NCBI GenBank assembly: GCA_018303805.1
Contig: JAGVXL010000001.1
Location: forward strand, 243,528 to 303,527
Direction: 5' to 3'
DNA length: 60,000 bases
Source of the DNA: Candidatus Pacearchaeota archaeon
GTDB lineage: Archaea > Nanobdellota > Nanobdellia > Pacearchaeales > DTIR01
In this document: positions 3,708 through 57,857 of the stretch, one piece after another
Layout: each line of letters opens with the position of its first letter
Numbering within the stretch: position 1 is the stretch's first letter
Made by a program: the position numbers and the translations under genes
The notes under the pieces: model-generated
What the model was told of the DNA's origin: nothing
The model's input: only the letters and a program-made list of their open reading frames with translations
The model's database searches: none

Positions 3708-3803
3708 AATAATAAGCAGAATCAAAAATTTAAATAACTTGCTAAACAGCAAGTTAGCACTCTCAAGGAGAAAATTTAAATAGTTTTATAGGTTGGAATA
3801 GGA

Positions 3804-26696: not shown

Positions 26697-27236
26697 ATGA
26701 TTATTACTATTTCTGGGATGCCAGGCAGCGGAAAGAACACTGTTGCAGACATTCTTGCAAAAAAGCTTAAGCTGAAGAGATACAGCGTCGGGAATTACAG
26801 GAGAGGGATGGCAAAAAAACATGGAATGACATTACAGGAATTAAACAAGCTTGGAGAAAAACAGGGCTTTACTGACAAGGAAGCTGATGAATGGCAGAAA
26901 AGGATAGGAAAAAAACAAGGCAATTTCATAATTGACGGCAGGTTAAGCTGGCATTTTATCTCCAACTCCATAAAAATTTTTCTTGATGTCAAGCCGGAAA
27001 TAGGGGCAAAGAGAATCATGCTTGACAACAGGCAGGAAGAAACTGCAAAAACAAATAGGCAGGCAATAAAGATGTGGAAAACAAGGGTTGCGTCAGATAT
27101 CAAACGATACAAGAAATACTACAACCTCAATCCATACAGCAAGAAAAATTATGATTTTGTGCTTGATACTTCCAGCCTTAACATTAAAGAGGCAGCAGGC
27201 AAGGTTCTGGAGTTTATTAAAGCCTGTAAAAAATAA
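26697..27236 (+). CDS. cmk: Cytidylate kinase (archaeal type)
   Basis: IITISGMPGSGK, IIDGRLS, RYKKYY, YDFVLDTS. Confidence 0.92.
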   Translation: MIITISGMPGSGKNTVADILAKKLKLKRYSVGNYRRGMAKKHGMTLQELNKLGEKQGFTDKEADEWQKRIGKKQGNFIIDGRLSWHFISNSIKIFLDVKPEIGAKRIMLDNRQEETAKTNRQAIKMWKTRVASDIKRYKKYYNLNPYSKKNYDFVLDTSSLNIKEAAGKVLEFIKACKK

Positions 27237-27335
27237 AACCTGGGATAATCCTCCTTTTTTCCTGAACCACTCAACTATTGCCCCCGATTACCCACCATAA
27301 AACCAAACAGGTTATTTAAAAGTGCCAAGGATTAT

Positions 27336-27998
27336 TTATTTAATCCATTTGCTAACCCTAAACTTCCTTGCAATTCTGCTCCTGCTTAATCTCTCTCCCT
27401 GCTTCAATAGAAAATAATCAAGATTTTTCAGCTCTGCAGGCGTTATTCCAATAACAGGGATCCTGTGGGCAGGATACAGCTTGTTCTTCAGGACTTTCTT
27501 TTTCCATGCCAAAGGATAGCCGCCGTAAAATTCAACAAATATATTCCAATGGGGGATGTAAAAATCCGGGGTGCAGATGTTACCCCTGAATGGCTTTTTT
27601 GTTATCATCAGTGAAATTGATTCATACAGGCAGGGGATTTTGTTTTCGTAGAGAAAATTTGCTATCTTCTGTTCTCCCTTGCTCCTGACGAGAAATTTCT
27701 GTTTTGTTCTGAGGTGCTTTTTTAATGGGTTTTTTCCATGTTTTAAGAATTCCTTGAAAGCATCAGGGTTTTTCATGAAAAAATTCCTTATTTTCTCGGA
27801 GAATTCTTTTCTCACCCTCTTATCCCTAAATCTCGCATGTTGGGCTTTGCCCAGCTTTTCCCTATAGGCAGGATTTTTGTATGCCTTCACGATTGCATTA
27901 ATCCGTTTCAGCTCAATTTTCCTGCTCTTCCTCAACCTTGCCTGCAATTCCTTTCCAGATTTAACTCTGCCCTTGCTTACAAAGCTGTAGCGCGACAT
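27336..27998 (-). CDS. Basic protein with C-terminal PD-(D/E)xK-like nuclease domain
   Basis: VRSKGEQKIANFL, YES, PDFY, VEFYG; paralog of 56790-57857. Confidence 0.75.
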   Translation of the reverse strand: MSRYSFVSKGRVKSGKELQARLRKSRKIELKRINAIVKAYKNPAYREKLGKAQHARFRDKRVRKEFSEKIRNFFMKNPDAFKEFLKHGKNPLKKHLRTKQKFLVRSKGEQKIANFLYENKIPCLYESISLMITKKPFRGNICTPDFYIPHWNIFVEFYGGYPLAWKKKVLKNKLYPAHRIPVIGITPAELKNLDYFLLKQGERLSRSRIARKFRVSKWIK

Positions 27999-28043
27999 TC
28001 ATCAGGAAGGAAAGGAGGATTTTTAAACTTCTACACATTATAA

Positions 28044-28060
28044 CCGAAAAGCTTAAATAT
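28044..28060 (+). promoter_or_regulatory. BRE-TATA promoter of the small Cys-rich peptide gene
   Basis: CCGAAAAGCTTAAATAT; TATA-to-ATG spacing matches rpl11 and sepF. Confidence 0.7.
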
Positions 28061-28080
28061 CTCTACCTATTAGGAACGAT

Positions 28081-28185
28081 ATGGAAGAAGATAGTATTGA
28101 AGTGATTTGCAAGAGTAAAAATGAGAATTTGGAAGTAAAGAACTTTGAGATGGGATGCTCAGAGAACTGCCCTTGTTGCACATAA
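28081..28185 (+). CDS. Putative RiPP precursor peptide, 34 aa (not in ORF track)
   Basis: MEEDSIEVICKSKNENLEVKNFEMGCSENCPCCT*; own promoter; stop lies 3 nt from the rSAM/SPASM stop. Confidence 0.75.
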   Translation: MEEDSIEVICKSKNENLEVKNFEMGCSENCPCCT

Positions 28186-28188
28186 GGG

Positions 28189-29460
28189 TCAGGCGACTCT
28201 AAGTTGTGTAAATCTTTCTGGAAAATTTTGTTTAAGATATAGTTTTATACGTGTTTTTATTATATTCTCCTTTAAATAACATGCGGGTTTATCTAATTTG
28301 ATATTTTTGAGGACAAGAGGGCACCCCCCACAGCAGAGAGGCAAAATCTTGCAAACTCTACACTTATCAATTTTAAGAGGGTCTCTAGCTAACCATTTGT
28401 AATAATTATAAGACATCGTCGCATTACCCCGACTGTCTATTTCTCCATCTAAGAAATTATCTAAAGGTAAAGCAATGCAAGAGTATAATTTTCCTTCTGG
28501 GTCTATTGTATATCCGTTAGCTGTGAGTTGCTTGCAGTATGAAAAAGAATGTGGTAGACCCATACCAAGTGCCATCTTAAATCCTTTATTTACCGCCATC
28601 TGCCATAATTTTGGTAGGAGTTTGATAGATGCAGGATAAGGATAATTACATGCGTTGCGTATGGGCAAAATTATCCCAAAATTAAGTGGCAATTCATTTA
28701 ATTTGACTGCGACAAGTGAATCTAACAATTCTTCAACATGGGAATATGCTCTCTTATCTATATTTATACATACATAAGCACTAATATTTTGTTTTTTAAT
28801 TTCAAGAAGATTTTTTATAATTTGGTCGTATGTCCCTTTACCACTTAGAAACGGCCTATTTCTATCATGTATACTCTTAGGTCCATTTAAGGTTATAGCA
28901 AGGGTTATAGGATACCTCTTTAATTTTTTAATGATCTTGTGGTTAAAAAGTGTGCCATTAGATACTATGCTGACAGAATATCTAATCCTATTTTGTTTAA
29001 TAAATTGATTCATTTTTTCTAAAAAATAGAAAACAATCTCCCCATTTACCATGGGCTCACCACCATAAAATCTCAAAGAAAAACTTTGGCTGTTCTTTGC
29101 TAACACTGTTTTTTTAATGAATTTTATTATACTCTTTGCAGTAGGCTTATCCATAGATTTAGATAATTTTTCGCCTTCATAGCAATATTTGCAATTAAGG
29201 TTACACGAATAGGTTGGAATAACAACAAATTCTAATTCTGTGTTATTGTACTTATAACTTTCAAAAAGAACTTTAAAAATAGTTTTTTCATCAACTCTAT
29301 CTTCGATCATTATCCCCTGATTTTTTAATAAAAAGACATCTTTAGAGAAAAGATTGTCAATTCTTCTGCCTTTTTTGAATATAAGTGAGCCTGTTAGGCA
29401 GTTATAGATTATCAAATTATTTTTATAAGGTATATTTAGATTATAATATGAAGGTTTCAT
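28189..29460 (-). CDS. Radical SAM/SPASM peptide maturase
   Basis: CNLNCKYC, FYGGEP, SNGTL; SPASM cysteines YC...YSC...CRVC.....CCGGC...C; N-terminal SYYN...YNCLTG extension typical of peptide-modifying enzymes. Confidence 0.9.
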   Translation of the reverse strand: MKPSYYNLNIPYKNNLIIYNCLTGSLIFKKGRRIDNLFSKDVFLLKNQGIMIEDRVDEKTIFKVLFESYKYNNTELEFVVIPTYSCNLNCKYCYEGEKLSKSMDKPTAKSIIKFIKKTVLAKNSQSFSLRFYGGEPMVNGEIVFYFLEKMNQFIKQNRIRYSVSIVSNGTLFNHKIIKKLKRYPITLAITLNGPKSIHDRNRPFLSGKGTYDQIIKNLLEIKKQNISAYVCINIDKRAYSHVEELLDSLVAVKLNELPLNFGIILPIRNACNYPYPASIKLLPKLWQMAVNKGFKMALGMGLPHSFSYCKQLTANGYTIDPEGKLYSCIALPLDNFLDGEIDSRGNATMSYNYYKWLARDPLKIDKCRVCKILPLCCGGCPLVLKNIKLDKPACYLKENIIKTRIKLYLKQNFPERFTQLRVA

Positions 29461-29461
29461 T

Positions 29462-30892
29462 TTATACCTTAGTTAATTTGGGTCCATCTGAAGTGTCACT
29501 GATTTGATAGCCTTTGTTTTTTATTTGTGTTCTTACTTCATCAGCTTTTTTCCAGTTACCAGATTTTCTATATAACTCTCTTTCATCAATAAGTCTTTTA
29601 ATATCCCGAGATAGATCTCCTAAAAATCTAGAGGTAGTCTCTGTCAAGTCAAGAGCTAACACTTTATCAAAATCTTTAATTAAATCATATTTTTCTTTGT
29701 TTCCTATCCCCTTTTCAGCCATTAGATTCCACAATGTAGCCAAAGCTTCGGGCATGTTAAGATCATAACTTATATTTTCAGTGAATTCTTTTTTATACGA
29801 GTCTATTAATTTATGATTAGTTTTGCTAAATTGGTCTCCTTGAATAATTGAAACAAGATTCTTTAGTCTTTCATAAGCATTTTTTGCAGATTGGAGGTTT
29901 TTCATGCTAAATACTAGGGGTTTTCTATAACTGGCTGTAAGGCAGAAATATCTATAGGCAAGAGGGTCAAAACCTTGTTTTTCTAAATCGTTTATGGTTA
30001 GAAAATTTCTTTCTGATTTGCCCATTTTCCCTTCTTTTAATATTAAAAATTCCCCATGAAGCCAATAATTCACAAATTTACTGCCTGTAGAAGCCTCTGA
30101 CTGAGCTATTTCGTTAGTATGATGAACTGGGATGTGGTCTGTTCCTCCACAATGGACGTCAAAATGTTTACCAAGATACTTCATAGACATTGCTGAACAT
30201 TCAATATGCCAGCCCGGAAAGCCCTTGCCCCATGGACTGTCCCATTCCATTTGCCTTTTTTTGTCTGTTGGAGAAAATTTCCACAAAGCAAAATCGGTAG
30301 GGGAGTTTTTTTCACCCATCTCTATTCTTTTGCCTGCCTTTAATTTTTCTATTCTTAGCTTAGCTAATTTTCCATAATCTTTTAATTTCGAGGTATCAAA
30401 GTAGATACCCTCGCTTGTTTTGTAAGTATATCCTTTACCTTCTAATCCCCTAATTAATTCTATCTGTTCTTTTATGTGGTCTGTAGCCTTACATATTATA
30501 TCTGGTTTTTTTATATTCAATTTTTTCTCATCTACAAGAAAGGCTTTTGTGTAAAATTCTGCTATATCCCATATAGACTTTCCTTCCCTTTTTGCGCCTA
30601 TCTCCATCTTGTCTTCACCAGTATCGGCATCGCTTGTTAAATGCCCCACATCAGTTATATTCATCACATGTTTCACTTTGTAGCCATTATATTCCAAGAC
30701 CTTCTTCAAAACATCCTCAAAAATGTAAGTTCTTAGGTTGCCTATATGTGCATAATTATATACCGTAGGCCCACAACAATACATCTTAACATTTGGGGGG
30801 TTAATTGGCTTGAATTCTTCGAATCTTCTTCCTAAGGTATTAAAAAATACTATTTTGTTCTCCATTTTACCTAATACAGTCTCCAAGCTCAT
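29462..30892 (-). CDS. cysS: Cysteine--tRNA ligase in an AT-rich island
   Basis: [50 protein letters not shown]. Confidence 0.96.
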
Positions 30893-31039
30893 TTTTATCT
30901 TTTACTATTCTAATTTTTTATATATCTATACCCTTTGTTTAAAAAGCAGGTCTTAATAAACCCTTCTATTATTACTCCTTAAGAATAGTATCAAATAGAA
31001 AGATTTAAATATCCTTTATTGTTAATAATAACAATTAAA

Positions 31040-31231
31040 ATGCCAGACATAACACATCTTTATGAGTGGATTCCAAAGGGCTTTGGGATAACCATAGAAG
31101 AAGATGTAGACCACTTGCTGTATGTGAAGCATAATGGAAAAACCAAGGGAACATTTAACCAGATGAATTTTACTGAGGAAATATTAAAAGAGCATGTTAA
31201 GAAGTTAAATCTTGAAGGAGTTATAAAGTAA
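31040..31231 (+). CDS. Small hypothetical protein
   Basis: ATG about 27 nt after TTTAAATA; 63 aa. Confidence 0.55.
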   Translation: MPDITHLYEWIPKGFGITIEEDVDHLLYVKHNGKTKGTFNQMNFTEEILKEHVKKLNLEGVIK

Positions 31232-31240
31232 ACTTGAAAA

Positions 31241-31921
31241 ATGGCACAAAATATTGAGAACAAATTAAGCAATGAGAATAAAGTTGAGGGGATATTGAAG
31301 GTAGGCAGGCATCTCAGGGAAATCCAAAGAAGGGGCGCAAGTTCAGGCATCTCAGGTGACAGGCAGGATAATCAGAACAATCAGGGCAATTCAAATTCTA
31401 ACCATCAAAATCCTTTTTACAGCAAGTTCAGGAGAGGCGCAGGAGCCTTTCTTTTAGGGGTGAGTTTGATAGGGGGTGGTTTGGGGTTGATTTCAACTAA
31501 TAAAGGATATTGTCAAGAAGTAAACGAACAAAAAATTGAAGATTCTGTCACCTCAAACCTTACGCAAGAATATGACCATCAGGAGATATGGAACAATAGG
31601 ATTGATGATGATGTGTACAAGGGCAATGTTGCCTTTACTTCATATATTGGAAGCGGAACAAGCAGACAGACAGAATTATTCGCTGGGAAGATGGATGATG
31701 ATGGAAATGTCAAGGATATAAAAAGGCTGACACATACACAAGAATGTGAAATAGGCCCAATTTTCACAGATACTCTGAGGATAGATTACGGAAGGGCTAA
31801 ATCAACTTTGATAAAAGATATGGAGTTAGATAAGTGGTTTCGCATTAATAAAGACGGAACCAATATCCAGCCAATTGATTTTATGACATGGCTAGGGGAA
31901 TACAGCAGAAACCACCGTTAA
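31241..31921 (+). CDS. Membrane-anchored hypothetical protein with TolB/PD40-like blades
   Basis: Central TM; VAFTS, ELF...DG..IKRLT, RINKDGTN. Confidence 0.65.
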   Translation: MAQNIENKLSNENKVEGILKVGRHLREIQRRGASSGISGDRQDNQNNQGNSNSNHQNPFYSKFRRGAGAFLLGVSLIGGGLGLISTNKGYCQEVNEQKIEDSVTSNLTQEYDHQEIWNNRIDDDVYKGNVAFTSYIGSGTSRQTELFAGKMDDDGNVKDIKRLTHTQECEIGPIFTDTLRIDYGRAKSTLIKDMELDKWFRINKDGTNIQPIDFMTWLGEYSRNHR

Positions 31922-31947
31922 AACACATTTGTCTTCTCACTTGCCTT

Positions 31948-31998
31948 AACATCATACGCATTAACCTGCATGCTGCACTCTGAAGGTGCAGGCATGTT
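31948..31998. repeat. Direct repeat copy A (displaced 3' end of the 1230-aa gene)
   Basis: 49 of 51 nt identical to 33234-33284. Confidence 0.9.
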
Positions 31999-32085
31999 AG
32001 CAAACTTTCCCTATTATCAAATTGCCTAATAAAATATATTTTATAGTATAGATAAATTTATATATAGTTATATACAAAATTATAT

Positions 32086-32598
32086 ATGGTTATCGAAGAC
32101 ATAATACCAACTCTGCCAAAAAAGAAAGAGGGGATTGAGAATGCATATAAGAATTGTTGCAAAAATAAAAAATTCATTCCTGTAAAAAAAGATAATTTTT
32201 CTGTTTACTTAGAAAAAGCAAAAAGCGATTTATCAAACACAAAAACTGATTTTGGAAATCAGGCATGGGACGGGGTTATAATCAAATGCTATTATGCTAT
32301 ACATCATGCAATCAACGCCTTGCTTGTCAAATCACAAGGATTTTATTCAAAAGACCATATATGCGCAATATTAGCATTAAATTATCTTAAATTGATATCA
32401 GAAAGTTTCTATAAAAAATTAAGAGAGATAAATACAAAATTCTCGGATTTTACTGGTTTTGAGATAAGCTATTCATTGAGAAAATTAAGCCAGTATGATG
32501 TCCTAAAGTGGAAATCGATAAACAAAAAAGACGCTGAACAAATATACTCTCTGGCAAAAGAACTTATTTTATTTGTTGAAGTGGAGTGCTACAAATGA
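32086..32598 (+). CDS. HEPN-domain protein
   Basis: YLEKA..DL, CYYAIHHAINALL, SKDHIC, LRKLSQY. Confidence 0.88.
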   Translation: MVIEDIIPTLPKKKEGIENAYKNCCKNKKFIPVKKDNFSVYLEKAKSDLSNTKTDFGNQAWDGVIIKCYYAIHHAINALLVKSQGFYSKDHICAILALNYLKLISESFYKKLREINTKFSDFTGFEISYSLRKLSQYDVLKWKSINKKDAEQIYSLAKELILFVEVECYK

Positions 32599-33206
32599 TA
32601 TTCCCAACATCTAAAGCAGAATACAAAATAATCAAGGAGATATATGAAAATCCTGGGATAAATATCTCGACATTGTTAAAAAAAACAAGAACTTCCCCCC
32701 AAGCAGGATACAAGTATATAAAAGAACTATTAAAGGCACAAATTATAAAAGAGGCAAAAGAAGGAGAGAAGCCTATTCTCAGGCGTTTCTATCCAAATTT
32801 CTCAGAAGTAGGAAAATTAATTTTTGCATTGATTGAAGAAAACAAAAAGCAGGATTTCTTGAATATTCATCCTATATTCAAAGGTGCAATAATTCAGTTT
32901 GAAAAAGAAATAATTGATCAGGTTGACTGTGTACTTATTTTTGGTTCATTCGCCAGAAAAAGTGAAACTAAAGAAAGCGATGTTGATATGCTTGTTCTTG
33001 GCAAAAAAGAAATCAAGAAATATATAGAGAAATTGACAGAGCGTGCTTTTATCACTATAAGAAATAAGATTTCATTAAGATTTAATAAAACCAAAGATTT
33101 CATTAAAAAAATTGAGAATAATGACTCTTTTGCAGTTCAGATACAAAAGGAGCATGTTGTTACAGTAAATGCCAAAAAATGGGTTGAAATAGTTTCAGAA
33201 TTATAA
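32586..33206 (+). CDS. HTH plus minimal nucleotidyltransferase (MNT)
   Basis: N-terminal HTH; IFGSFAR...SDVDMLV. Confidence 0.9.
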   Translation: MLQMIFPTSKAEYKIIKEIYENPGINISTLLKKTRTSPQAGYKYIKELLKAQIIKEAKEGEKPILRRFYPNFSEVGKLIFALIEENKKQDFLNIHPIFKGAIIQFEKEIIDQVDCVLIFGSFARKSETKESDVDMLVLGKKEIKKYIEKLTERAFITIRNKISLRFNKTKDFIKKIENNDSFAVQIQKEHVVTVNAKKWVEIVSEL

Positions 33207-33221
33207 ATCTAAATAAAAAAT

Positions 33222-36200
33222 TCAACCTGTTGGAACATCATACGCGTTTACCTGCATGCTGCACTCTGAAGGTGCAGGCATGTTTCCATAAATATCCCTG
33301 CACTTGATATAGTAAGTTATGTCTGTTCTCCAGTCTGCTGTGTGCTCTGTTGATGTTGTGAAAGGCATTTCAGTAGCAGCAGTAAAGTCAAACTTACAAT
33401 CTTTAATGCTGTATCTGCACTCACTCTCTTCATCAGTTATTATTTTAAGCATGCCTGCATCCTGGTAGACCCTGACAATCAAAGGTGCAGTCCTGTCAAC
33501 TTCTGTCTTGAAGCTGGTTATTGCCTTATCTGTATTGCCCCCTAAATCTCTGCATAGCACATAATAGGTATTGTTTTCTGCTGCATACAAATCTAACTTT
33601 TGTTCATGTATGCTGCTTCCAGTTGTAAAGAATTCTACCATTGCATTTTCATAACCTGCAGGAGAGAAATAGCAAGACGCATCTCCATTATTGTAGCCAT
33701 TTGAAGTCTCAATCTTTAATGTAACAGGAACTGGCTCTGAGCCATACTTGATAGTTCCATTTGGCTCAATCTTTGTTATGTTAAGAGGAATTGTCCCTTT
33801 TAATGTGAAAACATAACTTTCCTTGTTCACATTCCTGTCACTTTCATTAGCAGTTCCAATAAGCCAAGGCTGGTCTCTGCACCTGAAATAAAATTTATTT
33901 TCAACTTTGTCCTGTATCTTCGTTAAAGTTGTTGAACATTTGTAAGTCATATCCCATTCCATTTGCTCAAGTGAGGAAGAACAAGCAAATGTGCTGTTCA
34001 TATTTGAATAGTCCTGGTCTGTCTTGCTCCACTTGCATTCTGCTGGCTCGTTCAAATAAACATCTAAATCAGAATTTTTAGTGCCATAGGCGACAGGAGC
34101 GCCATTCTCAATGCCTGTTCTCATAACTGTTGCAGGAGTTGTATCAGGGCCAGGGTCAACGCAGAATTGCATTGCCATCTCCCCAAGATTCCAGTTTCCA
34201 TTTCCATCCCTGCATCTTGCATAAAGCGTATACTTTCCATCATTCTTAAGTTCAGGGCTTTCAAGCTGTGCATTGATATGTGCAGGAGCAGGCAGGCTCA
34301 TCTGCATGCTGTGATTATACATATACAGATTATCGCCAAAGAAGAACTGCATGTCATCAAACTTAGATGTGTGATTTGTGTCAACCTTGCATTGCGCAGG
34401 CTCATTTGTCTCTATGCCAAATGTCAAAGGTGTAAATGCCTTGATACAGCCATCTTGTGCGCCCTGCCTAATAATATTCCAGCAACCAGGTCCTGGAGGG
34501 CATGGCTTAACGCTTTGATAAGAATGGTCTTTTGTAAGCACGCCATCCCATGGCTTTATAGTCGGAGCATTTGTATCATCTTTATTGAGCCATGCGCAGA
34601 TATCCTTGCCAGTTCCCTCATTCAACAAACTGCATCCAGTGCCCAAGCTCTCACACCTGTACTTGCTGCACGGCTTCATTGGCCCGCCAAGAGGTGCCTT
34701 ATTGCATTTTTCGCAATCCTCTCCGCCTGTTGGTGGCTGCCAAGGCATACAAGTAAAGGTTACGGTTTCAGTTCTTGTTGAACCTATCTTCATAACTTTA
34801 AGGATTATTGCAACTATAATCATTGCAACAACCGCCCAAATAAGAGGGCCGAACCATGGCCCTTTCGGACCTAAAAGAAGCCACTTACCTGTTGCTCCTC
34901 CAAAACCTTTAACAAATCCTGCCATGGATGTCAAAGCAGCAGTACTAACGCCCGTCATTGTTACGGTATTAGCAGCTTCGCCTTTCAGACCAAACATTTG
35001 ATTTATTAGAATTGATGTCAAATAAGCACCTGCTACATTAACTGCAAGATTAGCAAAGCCACCTTGTTGGGCGTTTATTGTTAACCATTGATTTAATGTT
35101 AATTCTTTACCTGGAGCATATCCTAATTTCAAACCTTTAAGACTAGTAACTCCCTTTTGCGTCCCTCCAAAGAATTTAGCAGCTTCTAATGCTGTCTCTC
35201 CAGAAACAGGTATGAAATGGAAACTATTAAATAATATCCCTACACCAATGGCAACACCCCCAGCAAATAAAATCCCGCCAAACTGCCCCATGCCAGCATC
35301 CTGATTGCTGACGTTCTTGTCTGGCTCGTTCTGCGTTCCAGAAATTTGATAACCATCATCTGTGAACTTTCCTGCAATATTATACTTGCCACCGCAATCA
35401 CCCAGGCTTGTGCAGAATTTACTAATTGCATTTATCCAATTCTTCTCCTTGCATTCGCAATTTTGTATGCATTTCCATCCGCTCTTTAATGTCTTTTGAT
35501 AAATAACAGTGCATGATTGTGTTGCCATGCTGCAATAAGTATTAGCAGATAAACCCCCGCCCTCTGTCTTTAAATTAAATCCCGGTGGAAAGTTAGGCAC
35601 ACACATCTTTGATTTTGTTGCAACAGTGTTTAATTCCATATACATGCAGTCATTATTATCCTTGCATGCCTTCTCAACATTCGGCTTTGTATTATAATCA
35701 AAGCACATCTTCCATGCATTTGCACGGCACATTGCCTCTGTAAAATTGCCAGAGCCTTCAACTTTAACACTATCCTGAACACAAATTGCCTGCCTGTAAT
35801 CATCGCAGGGCTCAACCTTTTCCTCACCCTGCACACAAAGATTTCTCCAATGCCTTGAGCCAGGCGCATCTCTTCCCTTGCCAACCAACCCATCAAAAAC
35901 GCACCAGCTCTCACCATGCTTGTAATCATTGCCATTTGAGGTTTTATAACAATTCAAGTCCCTGCAAATATAATCTCCTGAAGCTGGGCGCGGCTCAACT
36001 CCTGTTCTTGCCTTTCCGCACATTGAGCCAAGATAATACTGGCAGTTCCCGCAGGAAGGATCTTTTGCATTATTCTCATTAGGGTCACAGGATTTTTCCT
36101 TGCTCAAAATCTTCCCAAAATTATAGCTTCTCGTCTTGTCTGAATCATAAATATTCTCGGCATTGCCGCATGAATCAAACCAATATACTTCATCCTTGCC

Positions 36201-36914
36201 TTCTATGCATCCTGTTCTTGCCTGCCTTGCGCAGTTTGTTCCAAGCTGTTCTGCTGAACAGAGAAAATCTTTATAGAAAGCAGACTCATTTCTTGTTAAT
36301 GTCTTGCACTCTGCCCTTGTGGCAAATTTGCATGTTCTTTCTGTTGCTGTGTCAATCACACAGGCACCTTTATCCTGGGATTGCGCAATCGCAACGCATG
36401 CAGATTCAGTTGTAATGCCGCTCCTGAAATCTGTTTCCAAGCCATAATATGAAGCAAGCTTCTTGCATTTTACTAATGTAGTGAGAGAAGCATCACTTCC
36501 TAAAACACAGCATCCTAATGAGCATTGCGCTATTTTGCAGTCTGCATTCACATCAAAGGTTCCATTTCTCAACTCGCATAATTTTCTTGGGGTATTCTCT
36601 GCGCAAGTTCCCTCAACAGAATCATAACAGCAGCCGAGCTTGCAGAATGAAGTTGAAGCGCATGCAGTCGGAGCAGACTTAAAAGCAGTATTACAAGTGT
36701 CAGACATGGAATTCTGGCAAAACAATCCAGAATCCTTGACTTTCTCGCAGCATGCCGGCTGTGCAGCTTTAACAACAGGAATCGGCGCTGCAATCAAAAC
36801 TGAAAAAGCAAAGATTGAAACTATCAAAATAGCAATCTGGAAAAAAGCCTCGCTAACGACGCTCGGCTTTTTCAGCGCCTCTTTCAGCTTGATTTGAATT
36901 TTGGCTTTATCCAT
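33222..36914 (-). CDS. Giant Cys-rich surface protein with central hydrophobic Gly-rich segment and C-terminal Ig-like repeats
   Basis: Signal/TM; many CC and CxxC modules; repeats such as TNEPAQC, LNEPAEC, TDEESEC and Y..CRD..GN. Confidence 0.88.
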   Translation of the reverse strand: MDKAKIQIKLKEALKKPSVVSEAFFQIAILIVSIFAFSVLIAAPIPVVKAAQPACCEKVKDSGLFCQNSMSDTCNTAFKSAPTACASTSFCKLGCCYDSVEGTCAENTPRKLCELRNGTFDVNADCKIAQCSLGCCVLGSDASLTTLVKCKKLASYYGLETDFRSGITTESACVAIAQSQDKGACVIDTATERTCKFATRAECKTLTRNESAFYKDFLCSAEQLGTNCARQARTGCIEGKDEVYWFDSCGNAENIYDSDKTRSYNFGKILSKEKSCDPNENNAKDPSCGNCQYYLGSMCGKARTGVEPRPASGDYICRDLNCYKTSNGNDYKHGESWCVFDGLVGKGRDAPGSRHWRNLCVQGEEKVEPCDDYRQAICVQDSVKVEGSGNFTEAMCRANAWKMCFDYNTKPNVEKACKDNNDCMYMELNTVATKSKMCVPNFPPGFNLKTEGGGLSANTYCSMATQSCTVIYQKTLKSGWKCIQNCECKEKNWINAISKFCTSLGDCGGKYNIAGKFTDDGYQISGTQNEPDKNVSNQDAGMGQFGGILFAGGVAIGVGILFNSFHFIPVSGETALEAAKFFGGTQKGVTSLKGLKLGYAPGKELTLNQWLTINAQQGGFANLAVNVAGAYLTSILINQMFGLKGEAANTVTMTGVSTAALTSMAGFVKGFGGATGKWLLLGPKGPWFGPLIWAVVAMIIVAIILKVMKIGSTRTETVTFTCMPWQPPTGGEDCEKCNKAPLGGPMKPCSKYRCESLGTGCSLLNEGTGKDICAWLNKDDTNAPTIKPWDGVLTKDHSYQSVKPCPPGPGCWNIIRQGAQDGCIKAFTPLTFGIETNEPAQCKVDTNHTSKFDDMQFFFGDNLYMYNHSMQMSLPAPAHINAQLESPELKNDGKYTLYARCRDGNGNWNLGEMAMQFCVDPGPDTTPATVMRTGIENGAPVAYGTKNSDLDVYLNEPAECKWSKTDQDYSNMNSTFACSSSLEQMEWDMTYKCSTTLTKIQDKVENKFYFRCRDQPWLIGTANESDRNVNKESYVFTLKGTIPLNITKIEPNGTIKYGSEPVPVTLKIETSNGYNNGDASCYFSPAGYENAMVEFFTTGSSIHEQKLDLYAAENNTYYVLCRDLGGNTDKAITSFKTEVDRTAPLIVRVYQDAGMLKIITDEESECRYSIKDCKFDFTAATEMPFTTSTEHTADWRTDITYYIKCRDIYGNMPAPSECSMQVNAYDVPTG
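33234..33284. repeat. Direct repeat copy B (within the current 3' end of the gene)
   Basis: Matches 31948-31998. Confidence 0.9.
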
Positions 36915-56789: not shown

Positions 56790-57857
56790 ATGAAACTAAA
56801 AAGAGATGCTCGCGGGAGGTTTGCGAAAGGCAATGTTCCCCCATTGAAGGCATTGGGGAACATGCCTGAATGGTGGAGGATGAAGGATTCCTTTGCAAAG
56901 AAGAAGCTGTATGCTGAAAACCCTTCACTTGCGAAACAGCATTCTGATTTTATGTATGAATATTACAAAAATCCTGCAAACAGGGAAAAGACAAGGAAGG
57001 CTGTTCTTGATTTCTTGAAGAAGAATAAGGATTTTGGAAGGAGAGTGAGTGCAAAGCTGGTTGAATATAATAAAAAAAATCCTGAAGCTTCTGCAAGGCA
57101 TAGAAGATTTATGCATGATTACTGGAGCAATGATAAGAAAAGGAAAGAAAAAAGCCTTGAGATGAAGCAGATGTACAGGGAAAATCCTGACAAAAGAAAG
57201 AGGTTAAGCGAGTTCAAGATTTTGTATTACAAAAAGCATCCTGAACTGAAAATCCTGATTGGAAGGAATACTGCCAGGTTTTTTGCATCAGCAAAAAATA
57301 GAAAGCTGGCTGCTGAAAGGATGAATGAAAGATACAAGAATCACCCTTATTTAAAAAAAGAGATTAGTGAGGCAAAACAGCTTTACTATGAAAAGCATCC
57401 TGCTGCATTAAGGAAGCTTCTTGAATATGGCAAAAAGGCATGCAAGAGGCATCTTAGAACAAAACAGAAATGGCTTGTCATGAGTTTTGGAGAAAAAAGG
57501 ATTGCGGATTTCTGCTATGATATAAAAGAGCCGTTATTGTATGAATCTGTGGAATTAAATTTTCCTGAAATGGACCCTGTGCCTGATTTTTTCATGCCAA
57601 GGCTTAATGTTCTTGTGGAGTTTTATGGAGGGCATTACAAGGCATGGAAGTCAAAGGTAAAAAAGAACAGGCTCTATAAAAAATACAAAATTCCTGTTAT
57701 TTTTATAACTCCTGCAGAACTTGACAATTTGGATTATTATCTTATCAAAGAGGCTGAAAGAATGAGCAAGACTGCAATTTGTAGGGATTTTAATGTTAAG
57801 AATTGGGCTTTGAATAAGAAAGGGCTGACAGAAGGGGAATTGAAAAGCCAAAAATAA
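56790..57857 (+). CDS. Basic helical-repeat protein with C-terminal PD-(D/E)xK-like nuclease
   Basis: RDARGRF; repeated Y(Y/W)..(N/H)P units; SFGE..IA, YES, PDFF, VEFYG. Confidence 0.78.
   Translation: MKLKRDARGRFAKGNVPPLKALGNMPEWWRMKDSFAKKKLYAENPSLAKQHSDFMYEYYKNPANREKTRKAVLDFLKKNKDFGRRVSAKLVEYNKKNPEASARHRRFMHDYWSNDKKRKEKSLEMKQMYRENPDKRKRLSEFKILYYKKHPELKILIGRNTARFFASAKNRKLAAERMNERYKNHPYLKKEISEAKQLYYEKHPAALRKLLEYGKKACKRHLRTKQKWLVMSFGEKRIADFCYDIKEPLLYESVELNFPEMDPVPDFFMPRLNVLVEFYGGHYKAWKSKVKKNRLYKKYKIPVIFITPAELDNLDYYLIKEAERMSKTAICRDFNVKNWALNKKGLTEGELKSQK

Follow-up and report, generated by a model that had tools for sequence, protein, structure and literature searches.

Second copies of IleRS and TrpRS in bacteria are horizontally acquired aminoacyl-tRNA synthetases (aaRS), and lateral transfer is a long-standing observation for the cysteinyl-tRNA synthetase, CysRS. 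A different setting for such genes is described in the part of the tiarin preprint available to us (bioRxiv 10.64898/2025.12.02.691738), where bacterial aaRS genes are enriched beside tfx-like operons for peptides that the ribosome makes and that are modified after translation (RiPPs), a housekeeping duplicate is always found elsewhere, the ArgRS of a cluster confers resistance, and the specificity of the synthetase matches the residue that precedes a conserved Gln of the precursor. SPASM enzymes in Archaea were reported in 2026, in the accessible text, to install ranthionine bridges on Cys-rich proteins (PMC13692751), and tRNA-dependent addition of Cys to a peptide is described, in the excerpts at hand, for 3-thiaglutamate biosynthesis (PMC9016710); TglHI belongs to a PEARL pathway. 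Here we analyze a stretch of 60,000 nucleotides (the window) from the genome of a Candidatus Pacearchaeota archaeon (GCA_018303805.1, contig JAGVXL010000001.1, positions 243,528 to 303,527), in which a second cysteinyl-tRNA synthetase gene, cysS-B (product CysRS-B), directly precedes the gene of a radical SAM/SPASM peptide maturase (rSAM) within an islet of about 3.2 kb. The explanation that we favor, and hold about as firmly as we doubt it, is that CysRS-B is a xenologous synthetase in a two-copy stage, which arrived with or beside a minimal thioether-peptide pair and has no dedicated link to the maturase.

The locus joins known kinds, namely aaRS xenologs and radical SAM RiPP pairs. As in the tiarin clusters, to the extent that the preprint text describes them, an aaRS gene is next to an enzyme that modifies a RiPP, and elsewhere there is a housekeeping synthetase of the same specificity (here copy A); unlike those clusters, in which the association recurs many times and which have tfx-type enzymes and the Gln rule of the precursor, the islet has a radical SAM/SPASM enzyme and is a single instance. 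No tfx-type core enzyme is present among the islet ORFs, and the Pfam matches inside 27999–31240 are CysRS and radical SAM only. With the SCIFF/CteB and CrpC/CrpA (ranthionine/sactionine) systems, as covered by the sources consulted (PDB 5wgg/5why; PMC13692751), the islet shares a CxxxCxxC motif together with a seven-Cys SPASM region, a minimal set of one enzyme and a Cys-rich ORF, and the lack of an exporter. It differs from them in a candidate precursor that is convergent, only 34 aa long and without a match to a curated precursor family, and also in the synthetase gene within the unit, a feature that was not found for these systems in the same sources. The best-scoring curated NCBIfam model for rSAM is NF038107, CefB, which aligns with residues 1–413 of 423 at an E-value of 4.6e-83; unlike CefB, rSAM stays under the cut-off (279.5 bits against 600), and the Cys residues of the peptide are irregular rather than at every fifth residue. 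Finally, as with xenologous aaRS, a complete foreign second synthetase stands alongside a vertical copy, but unlike the usual cases it does so in a 575-kb genome, in an order where redundancy is rare (5/401 genomes), and joined to a peptide maturase. The literature, as far as its text was accessible, yielded no described module of cysS with a radical SAM/SPASM enzyme.

Two cysteinyl-tRNA synthetases in one genome

The genome (G000), that of a DPANN archaeon which is Woesearchaeota-like by the names of its protein matches, is a single 575,132-bp contig with two full cysS genes. The preliminary description of the islet had proposed a search for a second cysS, and one is indeed found: copy A, full length at 494 aa, lies outside the window at G000:C1:55596-57080 and is 48% identical to B, so that cysS-B is not the only cysS. 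CysRS-B scores 459.7 bits against TIGR00435 (cut-off 340), with the same result in the genome scan, and matches Pfam tRNA-synt_1e at an E-value of 7e-97. Its class I motifs are HIGN at residues 49–52 and KMGKS, with Gly for Ser, at residues 289–293, and its Cys/His/Glu motifs are CGPT (40–43), WHIEC (228–232) and HHTNE (257–261), residues that would be the zinc ligands by analogy with the E. coli enzyme. Residues 16–473 of 476 align with the solved CysRS 3sp1, and the alignment with copy A reaches the last residue. Where at least 85% of 89 other sequences agree, B deviates at 5 positions, which equals the family median, and copy A at 6. On the TIGR00435 score, the motifs and the full-length alignment to 3sp1, the earlier view that the enzyme looks intact is borne out, and CysRS-B appears to be a complete, ordinary cysteinyl-tRNA synthetase. 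A degenerate CysRS paralog is ruled out by the TIGR00435 score and the median-level deviations at conserved sites, and an identity as MshC was rejected with 181.3 bits against TIGR03447, below the cut-off of 485.1. ARAGORN with default or intron settings reports no tRNA-Cys in the genome, and none of 24 Rfam tRNA matches has a GCA anticodon, within a set that standard tools capture poorly: 24–31 tRNA genes were detected in total, many of them intron-bearing, and low-threshold ARAGORN runs gave many implausible calls.

The relatives of the two copies differ. Copy A is 73% identical to the CysRS of G001, a genome of the same genus, and 63% to those of G003 and G004 from the same family, and copy B shares 47–49% identity with the copies of all three. 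The top database matches of B are P0002 (75%) and P0003 (67%), both metagenome proteins, and P0004 (62%), named Woesearchaeota, followed by many at about 60%, some of which are named Parvarchaeota, Ignavibacteria or Bathyarchaeia. We built a FastTree tree of 90 rows, which took in the 54 loci of relatives that passed a full-length motif filter while the others were dropped, and an IQ-TREE tree of 48 rows (LG+C20 PMSF, short search), and both agree. Copy A groups with G001 (support 99) within the group of family f1 (G003, G004), and B groups with P0002 (support 98–99) in a six-row clade with P0003, P0004, P0005 and P0007 (support 96–97), far from f1. Forcing B into the f1 clade costs 143.9 lnL, with p-AU of 0.00019 in the approximately unbiased (AU) test; the f1 group for this test was defined after the first tree, but it equals the vertical hypothesis that had been stated beforehand. 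Since the trees place B outside f1 and the AU test rejects the vertical placement, copy B is a xenolog, and copy A appears to be vertically inherited. The CysRS tree suggested at the outset as a check thus shows a B copy that does not branch vertically.

CysRS types form a mosaic in the order, in which exchange is common. Both B-like and A-like types are present among 60 relatives, and G002, of the same family, carries another CysRS type. Many relatives have a CysRS of the B lineage and no other; one of them is G120, the nearest genome-resolved relative of B (63% identity), which has one cysS match with neighbors that, labeled by eye from the ORF starts, are pilin-like, rubrerythrin-like and RuBisCO-like. 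The sister clade of the clade of B contains sole copies as well as the second copies of G267, G288 and G306.

A second cysS is a rare possession in this order. Each of the 60 same-order relatives has one cysS, which in three of them occurs as two halves. Among 401 genomes of the order searched, ten besides G000 have at least two cysS matches, of which seven were re-examined: G267, G288, G306 and G324 hold at least two non-fragment copies, the extra matches in G085 and G290 are pieces at contig ends, and G169 has one copy. The other three are the split genes. With G000 included, redundant CysRS occurs in about 5 of the 401 genomes.

Several observations on other cysS loci may be recorded here. 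The halves of the split genes lie on one contig each (G033:C35:43405-45854, G023:C81:27247-28761 and G059:C31:32-2400) with the break near model position 190–200, and about 1 kb separates the halves in G033; the break could be due to inserted DNA, to an intein-like element or to the gene being split. G288 has three cysS matches (L295, L299, L303), which are two close copies on different contigs and one B-like copy; contamination is given as 2%, and the triple may represent strain mixing or real redundancy. The second, B-like cysS of G288 (G288:C47, L279/L303) and that of G306 (G306:C19, L293/L306), genomes of different genera, have the same two neighbor genes, one of 296–331 aa and a partial ORF of about 190–210 aa, with no Pfam match. 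These are arranged on the same strand with overlaps in one genome and convergently in the other, and the locus may be another recurrent accessory-cysS neighborhood.

An islet between two resident genes

The base composition and codon usage of the islet genes set them apart from their surroundings, as the preliminary description had claimed for cysS-B and rSAM. GC and third-position GC (GC3) are 0.342 and 0.298 for cysS-B and 0.311 and 0.264 for rSAM, compared with 0.410 and 0.451 for serS and a GC of 0.381 for the whole genome; the genes of the islet range from 0.31 to 0.36. Among 485 crude ORF-genes of the genome, the GC3 of cysS-B is at the 12th percentile and that of rSAM at the 8th. In distance from mean codon usage, measured over 93 genes of 350–560 aa, cysS-B is at the 98th and rSAM at the 88th percentile, and on the same scale serS is at the 44th and cysS copy A at the 61st.

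Comparison with relatives points to an insertion. In G001 (locus L316), a homolog of orf220 (35% identity, E-value 6e-53) lies only 117 bp from the positional counterpart of orf226, which is weakly similar (26%, E-value 0.02), and serS is on the same contig; neither cysS nor rSAM lies between the flanking genes there. In G003, a clear orf226 homolog (51% identity) lies beside a large Cys-rich protein, with no cysS and no rSAM near it. G001–G004 have one cysS each and no rSAM match above 28% identity. Because the flanking genes adjoin in the same-genus G001, the stretch of about 3.2 kb at 27999–31240 is an insertion holding the 34-aa ORF, rSAM, cysS-B and a 63-aa ORF. The idea that cysS and rSAM arrived together with the peptide gene gains support from this synteny. 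Direct repeats flanking the islet were sought and none was convincing; a 16-nt repeat pair at 28046 and 30998 was discarded as a general promoter-like motif. Nothing suggests a viral origin, as judged from relatives: no CysRS-B relative occurs on the viral contigs, where rSAM relatives reach at most 32% identity.

A chimeric assembly could also have set a foreign cysS beside rSAM, since the genome is derived from a metagenome and conserved cysS segments draw reads of many organisms; read depth climbs to 45–355 at 30005–30271 in all four runs. We regard an artifact of this kind as extremely unlikely. Contigs from three other public DNA runs show no differing letters and bridge all three islet junctions: an X4 contig (27837–28894) crosses the left junction, a second X4 contig (28935–30211) the rSAM–cysS junction and an X2 contig (30194–31993) the right junction, each with 0 differing letters. 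The bridging runs may come from related sampling campaigns.

The left neighbor, orf220, belongs to a six-copy family in the genome (31–68% identity, no Pfam match), with paralogs at G000:C1:19376-19915, 75264-75830, 300821-301333 (window 57294–57806), 394095-394472 and 565651-566148. Of the 6 copies, 4 have a low-GC3 gene directly beside them, where the background is 0.21 (P of about 0.02, post hoc), and the C-terminal half of orf220 is, as we presume by eye, nuclease-like. The family may mark or mediate the insertion of foreign DNA. This raises the possibility that cysS-B and the rSAM–peptide pair were inserted separately next to a multi-copy orf220, for which the low-GC3 neighbors would speak, as would a second low-GC insertion 1.2 kb away (a HEPN/nucleotidyltransferase pair, described below) and the codon usages of cysS-B and rSAM, which are not notably alike (35th percentile of distance among 4278 gene pairs). 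A 1-nt junction with intact stop and start is, however, easier to obtain by transfer in one piece, and no intermediate form has been seen, G001 being without both genes; we consider separate insertions distinctly improbable.

The maturase, its peptide and the synthetase

The rSAM protein has its CxxxCxxC motif (CNLNCKYC) from residue 86, matches Pfam PF04055 at an E-value of 6e-17, and has a C-terminal set of seven Cys residues, as expected for two auxiliary clusters: C309, C328, C367, C370, C376, C380 and C394, none of which varies across 10 aligned relatives. Among solved structures, 5wgg/5why comes first (E-value 2e-41), with the anaerobic sulfatase maturase ranking behind. Residues 1–78, where an N-terminal peptide-recognition (RRE-like) domain may lie, precede the core and align to the CefB model from its position 1 and to chain 8vpo from residue 10 of that chain. 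An rSAM relative at 30% identity, on metagenome contig L048, has six tandem Cys-rich ORFs of 35–47 aa with similar N-termini upstream of it (L048 4229–5265, +), an arrangement that looks like a multi-precursor thioether-peptide cluster and suggests that the rSAM family acts on Cys-rich peptides. By analogy with its solved and curated relatives, rSAM would have thioether chemistry, and the 34-aa Cys-rich ORF is likely its substrate. This ORF has no curated family match and no paralog in the genome. Complex prediction of rSAM with the 34-aa ORF weakly supports the pairing, with a score of 0.45 against 0.01 for the best control; at least 38% of the contacts are common to the runs, and the pLDDT of the partner is 44 or higher. 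Of 157 solved complexes, 116 reach the score mark used, as do 2 of 215 mismatched pairs, and at scores of 0.60 or less lie 18 of the 157 solved complexes plus both passing mismatches. The pass may reflect likeness to the solved CteB–peptide complex. As another substrate, a 1230-aa protein (window 33222–36914, −) with a very Cys-rich N-terminal part, conserved in G003 and located 2.3 kb from rSAM, is conceivable; it is unlikely, because G003 has the protein without rSAM.

The preliminary description had cysS ending 1 nt before the ATG of rSAM, and the letters agree: the cysS-B stop (29464–29462) and the rSAM start (29460–29458) read TAA-A-ATG on the minus strand. The 1-nt gap is nothing special in this genome, because 80 of 335 same-strand neighboring ORF pairs (24%, from crude gene calls) are spaced by 5 nt or less or overlap. 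With no promoter element of its own in the 1-nt spacer, rSAM is probably co-transcribed with cysS-B, from a likely promoter in the TATA-like stretch at 30914–30925.

Whether the synteny recurs elsewhere had been proposed as a check, and the pairing was seen nowhere else. We collected 158 loci of rSAM relatives among the matches listed (80 metagenome, 78 genome; 21–35% identity, flanks of up to 6 kb), and 0 of the 158 has a CysRS beside the rSAM relative. Conversely, 0 of 102 other cysS loci of the order, with flanks of about 1.5 kb (0.5 kb for 31 of them), has an rSAM relative. The best rSAM match in the 401 genomes has 30–32% identity, and in a large database the closest proteins, at 49% and 44%, are P0122, from a contig of 1.5 kb, and P0123, from a contig of 10 kb. 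As an indirect clue, the matches listed include no rSAM relative, long or short, on contigs of 6274 or 5023 bp, the sizes that carry P0002 and P0003. Of the three findings that would have told against the preliminary description, a sole cysS and vertical branching do not apply to cysS-B; the third does, the adjacency being unique as far as tested.

Three roles had been offered for CysRS-B, and xenologous replacement fits best. In this reading, a foreign piece of about 3.2 kb would have been inserted between two resident genes of a 575-kb DPANN genome, bringing a complete, ordinary CysRS whose lineage moves horizontally among these archaea. Directly downstream of cysS-B, the same piece would bring a CteB/CefB-like enzyme that forms thioether cross-links in a Cys-rich peptide, together with the convergent 34-aa Cys-rich ORF, with its own promoter, as the substrate, and the 63-aa ORF. 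CysRS-B would charge tRNA-Cys in parallel with the vertical copy A, the two copies being a transient stage of xenologous gene exchange. The tight junction with the maturase gene would come from transfer of the two together, or from their insertion at one spot, in genomes that are very compact, rather than from biochemical coupling; a functional link between cysS-B and rSAM would be lacking.

The role of self-immunity would have the modified peptide, or a fragment of it, inhibit the CysRS of competitors, of the host or copy A, with CysRS-B as the resistant copy co-expressed with the maturase. A housekeeping duplicate elsewhere, a divergent cluster copy (48% identity), the tight same-strand junction and the status of the whole unit as an insertion are consistent with this, and the resistance conferred by the cluster ArgRS of tiarins, as the available preprint text has it, is a precedent. 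Two substitutions, S271 and S321, fall in columns with a conservation of 96% and 90% among 89 relatives and are not present in P0002–P0004. On the other hand, the adjacency does not recur at any of the 158 listed or 102 loci, the number of deviations in B is the family median, and the islet ORFs have no Pfam match to an exporter, a protease or an acetyltransferase. The B lineage is, moreover, the sole CysRS in relatives such as G120, the terms "CysRS" and "cysteinyl" have 0 matches in the main text of the tiarin preprint, and no CysRS-targeting peptide was found in the accessible literature. Immunity, which has the tiarin precedent behind it and, at this locus, no more than the duplicate and the adjacency, is in our judgment unlikely, and still less probable is its fuller form, in which the islet would be an archaeal toxin–immunity unit with a thioether-bridged CysRS inhibitor directed against host or competitors and a resistant CysRS-B.

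The remaining role, substrate supply, would have CysRS-B make Cys-tRNA for PEARL-like tailoring or boost translation of the Cys-rich precursor. CysRS-B is complete and its gene probably shares a transcript with that of the maturase, and tRNA-dependent Cys addition is known from 3-thiaglutamate (PMC9016710, in the excerpts at hand). The absence of a LanB-like, Fem-like or other tRNA-dependent transferase domain in every ORF of 27999–31240 speaks against this role; in addition, a 34-aa peptide with 5 Cys hardly requires an extra synthetase, and copy A is intact. We rate supply as very improbable.

Several points weigh against the xenologous explanation as well. Two intact CysRS genes kept in a genome of 575 kb would be unexpected without selection, with only 5 of 401 genomes in this state. 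In tiarin clusters, the mark of immunity is an extra aaRS gene next to a RiPP enzyme while the housekeeping copy is found at another place in the genome. The rSAM loci compared are distant (at most 35% identity) and say little on the immediate family, flanks were only 0.5 kb long at 31 of the 102 cysS loci, and the survey of recurrence took in distant loci rather than the contigs of P0002, P0003, P0122 and P0123. The codon usages of cysS-B and rSAM are each atypical yet not notably alike, and so do not point to a single donor for the two.

Redundant genes for translation are seldom retained in genomes of about 0.6 Mb, which makes a second intact CysRS either a snapshot of replacement or a gene kept for a reason. 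If CysRS-B is a xenolog in transit, the locus documents the swapping of synthetase types among DPANN archaea and shows small foreign islets landing beside a multi-copy nuclease-like gene. Were immunity true, CysRS would be a new class of antibiotic target, and the rule that a resistant aaRS marks the target would extend to archaeal radical SAM peptides; the toxin–immunity form would make the peptide the first natural product with CysRS as its target, and the locus the first archaeal aaRS-immunity pair and a radical SAM counterpart of the tiarins.

Features of the islet and its surroundings

The features of the islet are collected in the table.

Table. Positions of the islet and its features in the window.
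Feature	Position	Strand	Basis or remark
Islet, ~3.2 kb	27999..31240		between orf220 (27336-27998, -) and orf226 (31241-31921, +)
BRE/TATA-like motif ahead of the 34-aa ORF	28046..28061	+	motif GAAARNTTTAAATATC search
34-aa Cys-rich ORF, candidate precursor; Cys 10/26/30/32/33	28081..28185	+	convergent with rSAM
rSAM, radical SAM/SPASM peptide maturase, CteB/CefB-like, 423 aa (predicted)	28189..29460	-	Pfam Radical_SAM + Fer4_12
cysS-B, predicted complete second cysteine--tRNA ligase, 476 aa, horizontally acquired	29462..30892	-	TIGR00435, catalytic motifs and trees
TATA-like stretch rich in A/T, 21 nt ahead of the cysS-B ATG	30914..30925	-	read from sequence
orf63, 63-aa ORF, probably an islet member	31040..31231	+	GC 0.344

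When up to 2 mismatches are allowed, the motif GAAARNTTTAAATATC occurs 7 times in the window (at 3723, 15153, 23706, 28046, 30998, 39665 and 46338) against 1.39 expected, and 0 of 100 shuffles reach 7. Between the end of the BRE/TATA-like match and the ATG of the 34-aa ORF lie 19 nt, and two long ORFs of the window have an identical spacing, which suggests leaderless transcripts. Another match, at 30998–31013, ends 26 nt before the ATG of orf63. This ORF has no Pfam match, its homolog is absent from the G001 locus, the G003 locus and the rest of G000, and its Atlas matches all score 0.80 or less, which is noise.

Some contig joints at first looked like strain variants without the islet; they have sides of 21–35 letters at 90% likeness in conserved cysS segments and were not used as evidence. 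An X4 contig (depth 2.7) joins 27230 to 33096 with 31 other letters between; it was likewise not used as evidence, and if real would be a variant without the stretch from orf220 through most of the nucleotidyltransferase gene. That gene belongs to a HEPN + nucleotidyltransferase pair with an HTH domain (window 32086–33206, +), which has a GC of 0.30 and overlaps by 13 nt. Because G003 lacks the pair at the place between its orf226 homolog and the large protein, the pair is another small insertion of low GC, at a distance of 1.2 kb from the islet.

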